Origin: Longimicrobiales bacterium
GTDB taxonomy: Bacteria > Gemmatimonadota > Gemmatimonadetes > Longimicrobiales > Gaopeijiaceae
DNA: 64,000 bases
Direction of reading: 5' to 3'
Assembly (NCBI GenBank): GCA_965203485.1
Contig: OZ241892.1
Location: forward strand, 1,632,001-1,696,000
Shown here piece by piece: positions 11,946-18,161 of this stretch. The position numbers were made by a program, and so were the translations under genes. The stretch's first letter is position 1, and each line of letters opens with the position of its first letter. Below the pieces are notes generated by a model. It was not told where the DNA came from. It worked only from the letters and a program-made list of their open reading frames with translations, and searched no databases.

Positions 11946-12989
11946 TTACGTCATGAGGACGGGGCGGTACTTGTGGAAGTCGTCCAGGATCTCGCCCACG
12001 CCCCTGACGACGCAGCTCATCGGCTCGGGGTCGACGTGGATGGGGAGCCGCGTTTCGCGCTCGATCAGCTTGTCCAGTCCGCGAATCATGGCGCCACCGC
12101 CCGTCATCACGATGCCGTGGTCGACGATGTCGGACGCGAGTTCGGGCGGCACGATCTCGAGCGCGGCGCGGACCGCCTCCACGATGGCGCGAATCGGTTC
12201 CTGAATGCATGCGCGGATCTCGTGCGCGTGCACCAGCACCATCTTCGGGATGCCCGACACCAAGTCCCGGCCCTTGACCTCCATGCCGCGCTCGTCTTCG
12301 GTCTCCATCGCGGAGCCGATCTGCATCTTGATGCCCTCGGCGGTCGGTTCGCCTATCAGCAGGTTGTAGTTCTTGCGAAGGAACGCCACGATCGACGAAT
12401 CCAGCTTGTCGCCCGCGGTCCGGATCGACGTGTCCAGCACTATCCCCGACAACGCGATCACGGCGATCTCGGTGGTGCCCCCGCCTATGTCGATGACCAT
12501 GTTGCCGCGCGGCGTGTCGATCGGGAGCCCGACGCCGACGGCGGCCGCCATGGGCTCGGCGACCATGTAGACGTCCTTGGCGCCGGCCGCCTGGGCGGAC
12601 GAGCGGACTGCGCGCAACTCCAGTTGCGTGATGCCGGAGGGGACGCCCACCACCACTCGCGGCTTCATGCGGAAGATGCGCTTCGCCGTCACTTGGCGAA
12701 GGAAGTGGCGAAGCATCAGCTCGGCGATGTCCACGTCGGCGATCACGCCGTCCTTGAGCGGGCGGATGGCCGTAATTCCCTCCGGCGTGCGCCCCAGCAT
12801 GCGCTTCGCCTCGAGGCCGACTCCCATGATCTGCTTGGTGCCCTGCGTGACGGCGACGACCGAAGGCTCGTTCAGGACAACGCCTTCTCCCCTCACGTAG
12901 ACGAGCGTGTTCGCGGTGCCGAGATCCACGCCGATGTCGCTCGTGGGCACCAGCCGCTTCGAGTCGAACAATCCGGAGAAGTAGGACAA
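11946..12989 (-). CDS. mreB: Actin-like rod shape protein MreB
   Basis: DLGTANT, RPLKDGVIAD, EPMAAA, DIGGGTT, GIVMTGGGA. Confidence 0.96.
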   Translation of the reverse strand: MSYFSGLFDSKRLVPTSDIGVDLGTANTLVYVRGEGVVLNEPSVVAVTQGTKQIMGVGLEAKRMLGRTPEGITAIRPLKDGVIADVDIAELMLRHFLRQVTAKRIFRMKPRVVVGVPSGITQLELRAVRSSAQAAGAKDVYMVAEPMAAAVGVGLPIDTPRGNMVIDIGGGTTEIAVIALSGIVLDTSIRTAGDKLDSSIVAFLRKNYNLLIGEPTAEGIKMQIGSAMETEDERGMEVKGRDLVSGIPKMVLVHAHEIRACIQEPIRAIVEAVRAALEIVPPELASDIVDHGIVMTGGGAMIRGLDKLIERETRLPIHVDPEPMSCVVRGVGEILDDFHKYRPVLMT

Positions 12990-13135: not shown

Positions 13136-14686
13136 TCACCGCGCGCCCGTGCTGCCGAACGACCCGGACGCGCGGCTGGTCTCGGAGACCACCTCGGTCT
13201 CCTCGACGGCCGGCGCGAGGAAGCGCCCGAAAACGAGCTGGGCGATCCGGTCGCCGCGCCGGATGTCGAAAGCCTTCTCGCCGGTGTTGCCGAGAAGAAC
13301 CTTGAGTTCGCCGCGATAGTCCGGGTCGATCGTGCCGGGACTGTTCGGCAAGGTGACGCCGTGGCGCGCCGCGAGTCCGGACCGGGGCCGCACCTGGCAT
13401 TCCACGCCGGACGGCAGCTCCATGACCCAGCCGGTCGCGACCGCGTGCGCCGCGCCAGGATCCAGCCGGACATCCTCTGCGGAGCGCACGTCGTAGCCCA
13501 CGGCGTCGCTTGTTGCCCGGGCCGGCAACGGCAAATCGGGATTGGACGGCAGGCGCTTGAAGCGAACCCGGCATTCGCGACCGAAGCCGGCGTCCGCCAG
13601 AGGCGTGCCGAACGCCTCGGCCACTCTTCGGTGCAGGACGCGTCCGGCCGAGACGTTGACGCCCTTCGCCAGCGCCGGGTCCGCCGCGCACGCCCCGCGC
13701 CAGCCCTCGTCCGCGAGACGCAGGGCGTACGGCAACGTCGCGTTGGTGAGCGCCAGGGTCGACGACCTGGGCACGGCCCCGGGCATGTTGCTCACGCCGT
13801 AGTGGACGATGCCGTCCACTACGTACACGGGGTCCTCATGTGTCGTCGGCCGAATCGTCTCCACGCACCCGCCCTGGTCGACGGCCACGTCCACGATGAC
13901 CGATCCGGGCCTCATGCCGGCCAAGTCGGCCCTCTCGACCAAGCGGGGCGCCTTGCCGCCGGCGACCAGCACCGCGCCCACCACCAAGTCGGAGTCGCGC
14001 AACTGCTTCCGGACGGCGTAACGGGTCGAGTAGAGGACCTGCACGTTGCCGGGGAGCATCTCGGCCAGCTGCCTCAAGCGCGGCAACGAGACGTCCATCA
14101 CCGCAACCCGCGCGCCCAGTCCCGCCGCCATCAAGGCCGCGTGCGTGCCCACGACGCCGCCGCCCAAGACCAGCGCCTTGCCCGGCGCCACGCCCGGCAC
14201 GCCGCCCAGGAGGACGCCGGAGCCGCCCGCAGGCCGCCCCAGGTGCTTGGCGCCTTCCTGCACCGCCATCCGTCCGGCCACCTCGCTCATCGGCGTGAGC
14301 AGCGGCAGGTCGCCGTCCGCCGTCTCCACCGTCTCGTACGCGATGGCGGTGGCCCCGCTGTCCAGCACGGCGCGGGTGAGCGGCTCCGAGGCGGCGAAGT
14401 GGAAGTACGTGAAGATCACCTGGCTCTCGCGCATCAGCGGCCATTCCCGCGACACCGGCTCCTTCACCTTCAGGATCATCTCGGCCCGGGCCCAGACCTC
14501 TTCGGCCGTCGTGGCCACGCGCGCGCCGGCGGTTTCGTAGAAGTCGTCCGTGAAGCCGCTCTCGGCGCCGGCGCCGGCCTGCACGAGCACCTCGTGGCCA
14601 GCCTGCGACAGCGCGTCCGCGCCTGCCGGCGTCAGGGCGACGCGGTACTCGTTGTTCTTTACTTCGGTGGGAACGCCGACGAGCAT
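13136..14686 (-). CDS. ald-dut: Alanine dehydrogenase-dUTPase in-frame fusion (516 aa)
   Basis: Ald motifs (VGVPTEVKNNEYRV, KVKEP, FTYFHFAA, GGGVVG, DVAVDQGGC, NMPGAVP) continue without a stop into trimeric dUTPase motifs (GYDV, RPRSGLA, GTIDPDYRGE, GDRIAQLV, GSFGSTG). Confidence 0.9.
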   Translation of the reverse strand: MLVGVPTEVKNNEYRVALTPAGADALSQAGHEVLVQAGAGAESGFTDDFYETAGARVATTAEEVWARAEMILKVKEPVSREWPLMRESQVIFTYFHFAASEPLTRAVLDSGATAIAYETVETADGDLPLLTPMSEVAGRMAVQEGAKHLGRPAGGSGVLLGGVPGVAPGKALVLGGGVVGTHAALMAAGLGARVAVMDVSLPRLRQLAEMLPGNVQVLYSTRYAVRKQLRDSDLVVGAVLVAGGKAPRLVERADLAGMRPGSVIVDVAVDQGGCVETIRPTTHEDPVYVVDGIVHYGVSNMPGAVPRSSTLALTNATLPYALRLADEGWRGACAADPALAKGVNVSAGRVLHRRVAEAFGTPLADAGFGRECRVRFKRLPSNPDLPLPARATSDAVGYDVRSAEDVRLDPGAAHAVATGWVMELPSGVECQVRPRSGLAARHGVTLPNSPGTIDPDYRGELKVLLGNTGEKAFDIRRGDRIAQLVFGRFLAPAVEETEVVSETSRASGSFGSTGAR

Positions 14687-14744: not shown

Positions 14745-16016
14745 TCAACGGCGGTCCGGCTCCGCGCCGCGGGGGCCGAGACAGAGGAGGTTCTCGCGGC
14801 CGGGCCGAAACGCGGTCTGCGCAACGCGGACGACATCGTCCGCCGACACGGCGTCGACGCGCCGTTCGAGTTCGTCGAGGGGCAGGAACGGCAAATCGTG
14901 CAGGGCCAGGTCGGCAAGCCGGTGAAGCCGGCCGCCCGGCGACTCCAGAGCCAGCAGGAGCTGGCCCTTGACCTGCTCCTTGGCGGCCCAGAGCTCGTCG
15001 TCCGGCAGACCGCCCGGCAGGAGTTCGGCCAGGACCCCGGAGAGCGCGTCCGTGGCTTCGGCGACGCACTCCGGACGGGTCGCCAAGTACGCGCCCGCCA
15101 TCCCGGCCCGCGCGTAGGCCGAATGGAAGGAATGCACCGAGTAGGCGAGGCCCAGGTCCTCTCGGATCCGCTGGAAGAGCCGGGAGCTCATGCCGCCGCC
15201 GAGCGCGGTCGAAAGCAGCAGGGCGGCGTAGCGGTCCGGGTGCGCGCGTCCGGGCGCGGGCCACCCCGCCACGACGTGCACCTGGGCTCCGTCGCGCTCC
15301 ACCCAGCGCGTGGCAGGCTCGGGAGCGGCCGGAACCTCCGCCGGCGGAGCGCGGACGCCCGCGGGCAGATCGCCGAACGCCCGCCCGGCAAGCTCCAGGA
15401 GCGCGTCGTGGTCCAGTCGGCCGGCCGCGGCAACGACGAGGTTGGCGCCCTGGCGGTATCCGTGGTGCTGGCGGCGGAGGTCGTCCCCGCCGAGGGCCGC
15501 CAGCGATTCGGAGGCGCCCAGAATGGGACGGCCGTACGGGTGGTCCCCCCAGAACTCGAGACCATGGAACTCGAAGACCAGGTCGTCGGGCGTGTCCTGC
15601 ACGGTCGCGATCTCTTCGGCGACCACGTCCTTCTCGCGGTCCAGGTCCTCTTGGCGCAACGAGGGACGGCGCACCAGGTCGGCCAGGACGTCGACGGCGG
15701 CGGAGAGTCGCCGGGCGGGCGCGCGCGCCAAGTAGCAGGTGTGCTCGCGGGCCGTGTACGCGTCCAAGGATCCGCCGATGCTCTCGAGCGAGAGCGCGAT
15801 GTCGCGGGCCGAGCGTGTCGCCGTGCCCTTGAAGACCATGTGCTCCAGCAGATGGGCTGCGCCCCCGAGCCCGGGCGGGTCGTGCACGGCGCCTTGCCGC
15901 ACCCACACGCCCACCGCCGCCGAACGGATCGCGTCCATCTGCTCGGAGAGCACCCGCACGCCATTGTCCAGCGTATTCGAGCGGAACGATCCGCCGGGCG
16001 AGACCGCCGCGGCCAT
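14745..16016 (-). CDS. M16 family (pitrilysin-like) zinc peptidase
   Basis: Inverted zincin HLLEHMVFKGT, GGGMSSRLFQRIREDLGLAYSV. Confidence 0.92.
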   Translation of the reverse strand: MAAAVSPGGSFRSNTLDNGVRVLSEQMDAIRSAAVGVWVRQGAVHDPPGLGGAAHLLEHMVFKGTATRSARDIALSLESIGGSLDAYTAREHTCYLARAPARRLSAAVDVLADLVRRPSLRQEDLDREKDVVAEEIATVQDTPDDLVFEFHGLEFWGDHPYGRPILGASESLAALGGDDLRRQHHGYRQGANLVVAAAGRLDHDALLELAGRAFGDLPAGVRAPPAEVPAAPEPATRWVERDGAQVHVVAGWPAPGRAHPDRYAALLLSTALGGGMSSRLFQRIREDLGLAYSVHSFHSAYARAGMAGAYLATRPECVAEATDALSGVLAELLPGGLPDDELWAAKEQVKGQLLLALESPGGRLHRLADLALHDLPFLPLDELERRVDAVSADDVVRVAQTAFRPGRENLLCLGPRGAEPDRR

Positions 16017-16034: not shown

Positions 16035-18161
16035 TCAGGCCGGGCTCCCGGCTCCCCCGGCGGCGCGGCTCTCTTCCCGCCCGGCCGCCTTCAAGGAGAG
16101 CCGCATGCGCCCCTTCTCGTCGATCGACAGCAGCTTCACGCGGACCACGTCGCCTCGTTGCACCACGTCCTCGGTCTTGCCGACCCGCTGGTCCGAGAGC
16201 TCCGAGATGTGGCAGAGTCCTTCGACCCCGGGCATGATCTCGACGAAAGCGCCGAAGGTCGTCGTGTTCTTGACCGGGCCTTCGTAGATGCGGCCCACTT
16301 CGGGGTCCTGCGCGATCGCCTCGACCATCTCGCGAGCTCGGTCGCCGGCTTCCTGCGAGACCGCCGCAATCTTCACGGTGCCGTCGTCGTCAACTTCGAT
16401 CGTGGCGCCCGTGTCGTCTTGGATCGCCCTGATGTTCTTGCCCTTGGGTCCTATGATGTCGCCGATCTTCTGCGGGTTCACGCGGATGGCCACGATGCGC
16501 GGCGCGTGCGGGGAGAGGTCCGCGCGCGGCGCGGCGAGCGCCGCGTCCATCTCGCCCAGGATGTGCATCCGGCCCTTGCGGGCGCGCTCGAGCGCGTCGG
16601 CGAGGACTTCGGTCGTCAGCCCTTCGATCTTGATGTCCATCTGAATCGACGTGACGCCCTTGCGCGTGCCCGCCACCTTGAAGTCCATGTCGCCCAGCGC
16701 GTCCTCGAGTCCCAGGATGTCCGTGAGCACCTCGAAGCGGCCGTCGTGCGCTACGAGTCCCATGGCCACGCCCGCGCATGCGGCGCGCAACGGCACGCCG
16801 GCGTCCATGAGCGACAGCGACGCGGAGCACACGGACGCCATCGACGACGAGCCGTTCGACTCCAGGATGTCGGAGACGATGCGGATCGTGTAGGGGAACT
16901 CGTCCGGGTCGGGCAGCAACGGGCGAATCGCGCGTTCGGCCAGGGCTCCGTGCCCCTTCTCGCGCCTCGAAGTCGCGCGGATCGGACGCGCCTCCCCGAC
17001 GGAGAACGGCGGGAAGTTGTAGTGGAGCATGAATGCCTTGGTGACCTGTTCCGCGGAGTCGATGGAGTCGATTCTCTGCTCGTCGCGCGACGTGCCCAGC
17101 GTCACCACGCCCAGCGACTGCGTCTCGCCCCGGGTGAAGAGCGCGGAGCCGTGAGTCCGGGGAAGCACTCCGGTCTCGCAGCCGACCGGACGGACATCGT
17201 CGGGCCCTCGCCCGTCGGCGCGCACGCCCTCTTCGAGGATCCGCGCCCGCACATGCTTCTTCTCCAACCCCCGCAAGACGTCGCGCACCGCGTCCGGCGG
17301 CGCTTCCACGCCGGGAGCGTCCTCTGCCAGGCGCGCCGCCACCTCGGCGGCCACCGACGCCAATGCGGCGTTCCGCTCCCGCTTGTCCGCGATCCGCGCG
17401 CCTTCGGCCACGCGCCCGTCCGCCAGCGCCTCCACGCGCTCCCGCAGGTCCGCGGCCACCGCCTTGGGCTCCCACGTCATCTCGGGCTGCCGGCGCGCCT
17501 CGATCAGTTCCTGCTGGAACTCGACCAGCTCCTGAATCGCCTGATGAGCCACGCCGAGGCCCTCGAGTATCTCGGTCTCCGGGACCTCGACCGCGCCGCC
17601 CTCCACCATCGTGATGGCCTTGGCGGAGCCAGCGACCACGATGTCCACGTCGGCGTATTCGAGCTGGCGGAAGGTGGGGTTGACCACCCAGTTGCGCTGG
17701 ATTCTCCCGATGCGCACCGCCGCCACCGGCGTGCGGAACGGAACGGCGGACGAGTTGAGGGCCACCGACGCGCCCAAGAGCGCCAGCACGTCGGCGTCGT
17801 TCTCCTGGTCGGCGCTCAGGATCGACGCGTGCACCTGCGTCTCGTGGAAGTAGCCGTCCGGAAACAGCGGACGGAGCGCCCGGTCCGTAAGCCGCGCCGC
17901 AAGAACTTCCTTTTCCTGCGGCGCCCCCTCGCGCTTGAAGAAGCCGCCGGGGATCTTGCCGCCGGCGTACGCCTTTTCGCGGTACTCGACCGTGAGGGGG
18001 AAGAAGGGCAGCGTCGTGGGCCTGTCTTGGGCGGTCGCCGTGACGAGCACGACGGTCTCGCCGAATTCCACGAGACAGGCGCCATGCGCCAAGCGGGCCA
18101 TGCGGCCCGATTCCAGCGCCAATCGCCTCCCGGCGAACTGGCGTTCAATTCTGTGCGTCAT
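16035..18161 (-). CDS. pnp: Polyribonucleotide nucleotidyltransferase
   Basis: FFPLTVEYRE, GKIPGGFFKRE, RTHGSALFTRGETQ, ESNGSSSMA, GDMDFKVAGT, KH and S1 domains. Confidence 0.97.
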   Translation of the reverse strand: MTHRIERQFAGRRLALESGRMARLAHGACLVEFGETVVLVTATAQDRPTTLPFFPLTVEYREKAYAGGKIPGGFFKREGAPQEKEVLAARLTDRALRPLFPDGYFHETQVHASILSADQENDADVLALLGASVALNSSAVPFRTPVAAVRIGRIQRNWVVNPTFRQLEYADVDIVVAGSAKAITMVEGGAVEVPETEILEGLGVAHQAIQELVEFQQELIEARRQPEMTWEPKAVAADLRERVEALADGRVAEGARIADKRERNAALASVAAEVAARLAEDAPGVEAPPDAVRDVLRGLEKKHVRARILEEGVRADGRGPDDVRPVGCETGVLPRTHGSALFTRGETQSLGVVTLGTSRDEQRIDSIDSAEQVTKAFMLHYNFPPFSVGEARPIRATSRREKGHGALAERAIRPLLPDPDEFPYTIRIVSDILESNGSSSMASVCSASLSLMDAGVPLRAACAGVAMGLVAHDGRFEVLTDILGLEDALGDMDFKVAGTRKGVTSIQMDIKIEGLTTEVLADALERARKGRMHILGEMDAALAAPRADLSPHAPRIVAIRVNPQKIGDIIGPKGKNIRAIQDDTGATIEVDDDGTVKIAAVSQEAGDRAREMVEAIAQDPEVGRIYEGPVKNTTTFGAFVEIMPGVEGLCHISELSDQRVGKTEDVVQRGDVVRVKLLSIDEKGRMRLSLKAAGREESRAAGGAGSPA

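Follow-up and report, generated by a model that had tools for sequence, protein, structure and literature searches.

A fused ald-dut gene and its surroundings

In the window, that is, the whole 64,000-nucleotide stretch of a Longimicrobiales bacterium genome analyzed here, we identified on the minus strand a fused ald-dut open reading frame (13136..14686), which starts with the ATG at 14686, ends with the TGA at 13138-13136, contains 0 internal stops and encodes a protein of 516 aa (P0001). Pfam places AlaDh_PNT_N at residues 4-137, AlaDh_PNT_C at 141-352 and dUTPase at 386-514, while the NCBIfam models alaDH TIGR00518 and dut TIGR00576 match residues 1-365 with 512.3 bits (cut-off 391.85) and residues 378-514 with 153 bits (cut-off 103), respectively; PRK00601 gives 154 on the dUTPase half against a cut-off of 103. 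The preliminary description of this DNA had read a complete alanine dehydrogenase (Ald) running without a stop into a complete dUTPase, and the translation and the two family cut-offs bear this reading out. The junction of the two halves reads ...VAEAFGTPLADAGFGRECRVRFKRLP....

The fused gene is preceded by an M16 peptidase gene (14745..16016, minus strand) and by pnp (16035..18161, minus strand), and is followed by mreB (11946..12989, minus strand); pnp and mreB also served as tree markers. The recurring order pnp, M16 peptidase, dut, given in the preliminary description, is found here as pnp - M16 peptidase - ald/dut - mreB. The source genome is a single contig of 3.56 Mb with 95% completeness, and the fused gene is its sole match to either ald or dut (one PF00692 match), the other matches to the Ald half being a distant pntA-like ORF. 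Neither a dimeric dUTPase nor thyA was found in this 95%-complete genome, which harbors thyX and three UDG matches. A promoter and terminator scan returned 0 sites. As a separate observation, a short near-identical sequence occurs at scattered places and on both strands of G000 (e.g., on C1 near 715311, 738505, 1069238 and 1559583), which suggests a repeat family.

Since the genome is a single-contig assembly, and since frameshifted versions of the protein occur in the database (P0094 and P0390), an assembly artefact or a decaying read-through confined to one genome could be suspected. Yet the junction is bridged, at depths of 29-502, by contigs of 4 of the 4 public runs without a single difference or gap, and these contigs show neither an indel nor a stop there. 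These four runs belong to one study with at most two samples and are possibly the source of this genome, so that the independent proof of the fusion has to be comparative and comes from other genomes. With the same architecture in 61 genomes and 77 protein clusters (see below), the artefact is refuted, and we give it virtually no weight.

Domains and active sites of the fused protein

The alanine dehydrogenase domain covers residues 1-359 (13610..14686, minus strand), the family match extending to about residue 365, and is assigned by TIGR00518 and by its matches to solved AlaDH structures (8hye and 2voe, E~1e-127 by phmmer). It is followed by a linker of 14 aa, residues 360-373 (13568..13609, minus strand), which belongs to the shortest class seen and would correspond to the former Ald tail plus the dut leader. 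The trimeric-type (all-beta) dUTPase domain covers residues 374-516 (13136..13567, minus strand) and is assigned by PF00692 and TIGR00576; its dN/dS is low. Each half of P0001 was matched separately among solved structures, and no chain there spans both halves. An AlphaFold2 model of the P0001 monomer reached a pLDDT of 76.8 and a pTM of 0.51, and deviated from AlaDH structures by about 8 A rmsd, too much for any reading of geometry; a complex prediction with the Ald domain and three dUTPase domains scored 0.00.

We aligned 75 of the 77 fusion clusters (leaving out P0008 and P0016) and found R15, K75, H96, E118, M133, D198, D270 and N300 of Ald to be invariant in 75/75 fusions, P0001 included. 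Likewise invariant in 75/75 are D399, R435-S436-G437, D454, Y457, Q483, R505 and F510-G511-S512 of the dUTPase, which we assume to belong to its motifs according to the general motif consensus. The catalytic roles of His96 and Asp270 of Ald are described in PMC4691113, and the five-motif layout of dUTPase in PMC12524310. On these residues the fused protein carries two intact, conserved active sites. All five dUTPase motifs that the preliminary description had listed are present; motif V of P0001 reads RASGSFGSTG, however, with G506A and G509S relative to the clade majority. The replacement of G506 by Ala is seen in 5 of the 75 fusions, P0001 included, and genus g1 has Ala at this usually invariant glycine and Ala or Ser at 509 (residues 505-509, window region 13166-13175), while 11 of 75 other fusions carry Arg at position 509. 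The dUTPase activity may be altered by these changes in motif V.

Distribution of the fusion

The fusion is present in 61 of the 62 genomes of five related genera, all of them uncultured Gemmatimonadota: 3/3 in g1, 53/53 in g36, 3/4 in g38, 1/1 in g49 and 1/1 in g50. This count is based on stop-free full-length matches in a search of 314 genomes of the family, on direct translations, and on a separate check of G088, where a contig break falls inside ald and the junction is nevertheless stop-free. The other 252 family genomes gave no stop-free full-length match among the matches listed. As this search shows matches only in part, and fusions with long linkers show up in it as two matches, we relied on direct inspection of the loci. 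By such inspection, ald and dut are separate in 40 of the 40 outgroup genomes that have both halves in the locus. Among 80 loci of a genome collection, ald and dut lie side by side as separate genes in 46, dut is missing from the locus in 33, and one (Longimicrobiales bacterium) is fused. Across the phylum (401 genomes), the full-length matches outside the clade all contain a stop, among the matches listed; this tally includes the unpublished G465, on which no claim rests alone. Candidates for an in-frame ald-dut outside the clade, such as G027, G031, G039, G126, G141 and G155, were rejected because of a stop in every one of them.

The protein databases agree with the genomes. Within its best 120 matches, a protein search returned 77 clusters, the query among them, with full-length Ald plus dUTPase (501-550 aa, 68-87% identity), together with one partial; the nearest named unfused matches come from Gemmatimonadota. 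A search with the dUTPase part returned, within the best 120 of 241 matches, 82 Ald-dUTPase proteins with identities of 61% or more over this part, and no further Ald in the remaining 38 of these 120. Among representatives clustered at 50% identity, no dUTPase was seen in the best 150 matches; fusions clustered under an ordinary Ald cannot be revealed by this search, because even the present Ald-dUTPase family is absent there. Two fused members in NCBI nr carry the name 'alanine dehydrogenase' only. The Ald-dUTPase fusion is therefore real and clade-wide. The preliminary description had proposed to look for the same architecture elsewhere, and had held that the fusion would fall if all close relatives had separate genes; with 61 of 62 genomes fused, they do not.

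A probable single origin and one reversion

In Gemmatimonadota, ald and dut are usually distinct genes, with ald immediately upstream of dut in the cluster pnp - M16 peptidase - ald - dut - mreB, and in unfused relatives the dut start often overlaps the ald stop (as in GTGA, TTGA or ATGA) or follows it closely. In a pnp+mreB tree (60 rows, quick search; G027, lacking both markers, was left out), 28 fused genomes and G116 lie on one side of a branch with an SH-aLRT of 100, and the unfused G024 is their sister; the placement of G134 is less sure owing to its long branch. A single fused clade is also seen in a pnp+M16+mreB tree (37 rows), from which four rows, including G134, were dropped as they had no M16 match. 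In the ald+dut tree, G134 falls outside the fused clade with weak support.

In G116, the one unfused genome of genus g38, Ald ends at 377 aa and an ATG in the dut frame overlaps the end of ald. Its stop recurs in two sequence clusters, P0090 with 14 members and P0114 with 9 (93% identity to G116), so that the split form comprises 23 sequences in these clusters, and in the Ald tree G116, P0090 and P0114 are nested among fused g38 sequences. Judged from the sequences, the reversion to two genes in the nested G116 lineage is real. The fusion likely arose once, and one gain plus one loss would be the simplest history. We also considered several independent fusions inside the clade, and rejected them since about seven gains would be needed instead of one gain and one loss, and since the tail of the split lineage resembles the linkers of fused g38 members.

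Selection on the two domains and the linker

In 13 disjoint close pairs, dN/dS was 0.12 in ald and 0.10 in dut, which shows both domains to be under purifying selection, whereas the drifting linker reached 0.63; being Nei-Gojobori counts at high GC, these values are approximate. Between F359 and V374 the linker, in which Ala, Gly and Pro abound, varies from 14 to 48 aa, with 17 length classes among the 75 proteins, none of which has a linker shorter than 14 aa. A geometric floor could account for this minimum. Had a docking surface been created by the fusion, extra changes would be expected on the stem branch in both domains; however, fewer were found than in the control genes. Clade-fixed columns (28 fused versus 27 other rows) number 0/140 in dut and 4/359 in ald, against 13/708 in pnp and 5/347 in mreB, and the stem branch relative to the outgroup length is 0.003 in dut, 0.019 in ald, 0.035 in pnp and 0.045 in mreB. 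At the fusion, clade-specific changes are not in excess in either domain. When the larger set is considered, Q36, S156 and H352 of Ald are nearly clade-specific, with H352 lying near the junction. Neither a conserved linker nor newly fixed interface residues, by which a pathway-coupled bifunctional enzyme may be recognized, were thus found.

Possible separate synthesis of the dUTPase

Much of the dUTPase might be made separately, either by internal initiation at a Met or Val codon after the last helix of Ald or by proteolysis of the linker, so that the fusion would be partly cosmetic. Of 51 fused genomes, 23 have a start codon at position 361 that is preceded by SD-like letters (GAGG, GGAG or AGGA), and the first Val of the dUTPase core is GTG in 32 of the 51, compared with 48% of the Val codons in ald. 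NCBI also holds stand-alone 'dUTP diphosphatase' calls of 160-163 aa that begin at linker methionines, although these reflect choices of a gene caller and not expression; thus P0349-P0352 and P0363 are fused-type sequences of which only the C-terminal 160-163 aa are annotated. On the other hand, the SD-like letters belong to Ald codons that are conserved, and unfused genomes have them just as often (29/41), no start position is conserved over the clade, and 4 of the 51 fused genomes, including the source genome, have no ATG, GTG or TTG in the linker. In the source genome a latent internal-start site (13604..13618, minus strand) consists of GAGG, 8 nt and an ACG (T361, 13606-13604). The absence of any in-frame ATG, GTG or TTG at the junction, as stated in the preliminary description, holds from 13620 to the dUTPase core; the in-frame GTG at 13624-13622 (V355) falls just beyond the range considered there. 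With no such codon between F359 and V374, ACG at 361 and an SD-like motif derived from Ald codons, internal initiation would be possible in some members of the clade but unlikely in the source genome, and we consider separate synthesis as a general explanation of the fusion to be quite unlikely.

A passive tether as the preferred explanation

Ald converts pyruvate, NH3 and NADH to alanine, and dUTPase converts dUTP to dUMP and PPi, so that the two enzymes have no metabolite in common; by this established chemistry, the shared intermediate of a channelling enzyme is lacking. Our best explanation is that the two enzymes probably work independently on a flexible, passive tether, which became entrenched when dut lost its own start. 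In the ancestor, ald and dut would have overlapped or lain close together, and their frames would have been joined by a small indel or a stop loss. Subsequently, dut would have lost its own start in many lineages, whereupon any linker mutation that introduces a stop or shifts the frame would silence dut and be purged, and such purging would entrench the fusion without any benefit. As dut without its own start requires the frame to be kept, persistence is explained without a benefit. Ald would keep its hexamer and the dUTPase its trimer, the simplest arrangement being three tails capping each three-fold face; the argument of the preliminary description that a D3 hexamer and a C3 trimer are compatible in symmetry is right in principle. 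Reversion would become possible once the dut frame acquires a new start, for which the G116 lineage is an example.

Several observations weigh against this passive tether. Persistence over five genera and at least 14 length classes of the linker, with one reversion found, could be explained equally well by a weak benefit. A fully neutral tether, moreover, appears to be at odds with a linker dN/dS of 0.63 rather than 1, with the lack of linkers below 14 aa, and with the nearly clade-specific Q36, S156 and H352. A weakness of the ratchet is that it assumes dut to be needed, yet PF00692 was not found in 5/5 near-complete genomes of genus g6 in the same family (G007, G052, G054, G056 and G058).

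The weak benefit, which would involve no allostery, might lie in a fixed stoichiometry, in a stabilized or co-localized dUTPase, or in hexamers cross-linked by trimers whose tails come from different hexamers. It would agree with a frame kept despite many linker indels, and with a median dUTPase dN/dS of 0.09 in fused pairs (86) versus 0.17 in separate ones (14), the pairs being non-independent and unmatched. However, co-expression is already given by neighboring, translationally coupled genes, and the reversion persisted through at least one lineage split. We rate a weak benefit as very unlikely.

A regulatory coupling of the two enzymes is a more elaborate alternative. The substrate-binding domains of Ald are located at apical positions of the hexamer. 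The C-terminal tails of Ald might move with coenzyme binding and pull on or release a capping dUTPase trimer, such that dUTP hydrolysis and the supply of dUMP to ThyX would follow NADH/NAD+; we find this unlikely. It is just as unlikely, in our estimate, that dUTPase trimers cap the three-fold faces of a D3 Ald hexamer, one trimer per face (or cross-link the hexamers into a lattice), and that closure of Ald on coenzyme binding tunes the dUTPase. This would make dUTP sanitization and the dUMP supply to ThyX redox-gated, a kind of dUTPase control that we did not find described. In favor of coupling, residues 309-371 of Ald lie in the mobile substrate-binding domain, for which PMC4691113 describes a rotation of 16 degrees on coenzyme binding, and an Ald-fold hexamer in Thermus is described as an NAD+-dependent regulator of an unrelated enzyme encoded by a neighboring gene (bioRxiv 10.1101/2025.10.31.685773); the presence of thyX without a detected thyA in the source genome and the long persistence of the fusion would also fit. 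Nevertheless, near-neutral linkers of 14-48 aa would pass on motion poorly, the dUTPase has 0 clade-fixed columns, and a natural split lineage exists. In addition, the Thermus regulator (ADLP) has, according to the same preprint, Ala in place of the catalytic lysine, whereas K75 is kept in 75/75 fusions, so the loss that marks an ADLP-type pseudoenzyme is not seen here. The preliminary description had inferred a bifunctional enzyme tying NADH/alanine metabolism to dUTP sanitization. This proposal finds no support, given the lack of a common metabolite, a near-neutral linker of variable length, no excess of clade-fixed changes, and the nested split lineage.

Relation to known systems

The Ald half matches M. 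tuberculosis Ald Rv2780 (TIGR00518; PDB 2VOE/2VHX) over its full length with about 54% identity, and the residues for catalysis and NAD contact, R15, K75, H96, M133, D198 and D270, are kept; the C-terminal tail is free in bacterial Ald, whereas in the fusion the dUTPase takes its place. The other half resembles the homotrimeric all-beta Dut (TIGR00576/PRK00601) in its motifs I-V, in passing both cut-offs and in being under purifying selection. Unlike an ordinary Dut, it has its N-terminus tied to a presumably oligomeric enzyme of 360 aa, lacks its own start codon in the source genome, and carries Ala and Ser at two usually-Gly positions of motif V.

The NC-dUTPase of Mason-Pfizer monkey virus is likewise a natural N-terminal fusion on a trimeric dUTPase with a flexible linker, and the fusion of this retroviral domain is reported to leave kcat and KM unchanged (PMC1802613). 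Its partner, however, is described as a small monomeric nucleic-acid-binding domain with a plausible role, while here it is a metabolic enzyme, presumably hexameric, sharing no substrate with dUTPase. The ADLP-CoA transferase pair of Thermus thermophilus also links an Ald-fold hexamer physically to an unrelated neighbor-encoded enzyme (bioRxiv 10.1101/2025.10.31.685773), but ADLP is presented there as a non-covalent, catalytically dead NAD+ sensor, whereas the present Ald is joined covalently and has both K75 and H96. Many other unrelated domains occur in fusions with dUTPase, which, like the unchanged kinetics of NC-dUTPase, would agree with a passive tether (CoaBC/DFP, NUDIX, dCMP deaminase, PFK, LptF/G, ThiF and others); these sporadic fusions are mostly singleton proteins in single-member clusters, some probably errors, in contrast to the Ald-dUTPase, which is fixed across five genera.

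The preliminary description had not recognized the fusion as one already described, and our full-text literature search, the coverage of which lies largely outside subscription journals, found no description of it either. It is apparently an undescribed fusion of two known enzymes, and an architecture fixed in about 60 species-level genomes has been hidden in databases under the name of 'alanine dehydrogenase'. If the tether is passive, it would represent a clean natural case of a gene fusion born of adjacency alone and then entrenched, and a warning that such fusions are not to be read as evidence of functional linkage; if coupling is true, it would be a new way of regulating dUTPase. The unfused sister group, the series of linkers of 14-48 residues and the natural reversion make neutral and adaptive accounts of the fusion directly testable.

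Other observations in the fused clade and its relatives

P0210 (704 aa) and P0191 (561 aa) are remote Ald proteins that carry either a long C-terminal extension of unrelated sequence or an internal insertion, neither being a dUTPase. All 19 genomes of genus g6 have one match only in the family-genome search, and at one g6 locus (L097) ald, pnp, M16 and mreB are in place. In genus g54 (G161-G169), the only strong match is dut-sized in score in 8 of 9 genomes, and likewise in G011, which suggests that ald was lost in those g54 genomes and in G011. Four fused loci, L063 (G104), L085 (G102), L088 (G106) and L072 (G134), lack an M16 peptidase match in the interval from pnp to the fused gene, and the M16 peptidase thus seems to have been lost more than once inside the fused clade. 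In family f3 (L013, L017, L020, L021 and L028), the dut beside ald is 42-47% identical to the query, compared with 59-72% in f1 and f2, suggesting that the f3 dUTPase is faster-evolving or was replaced.
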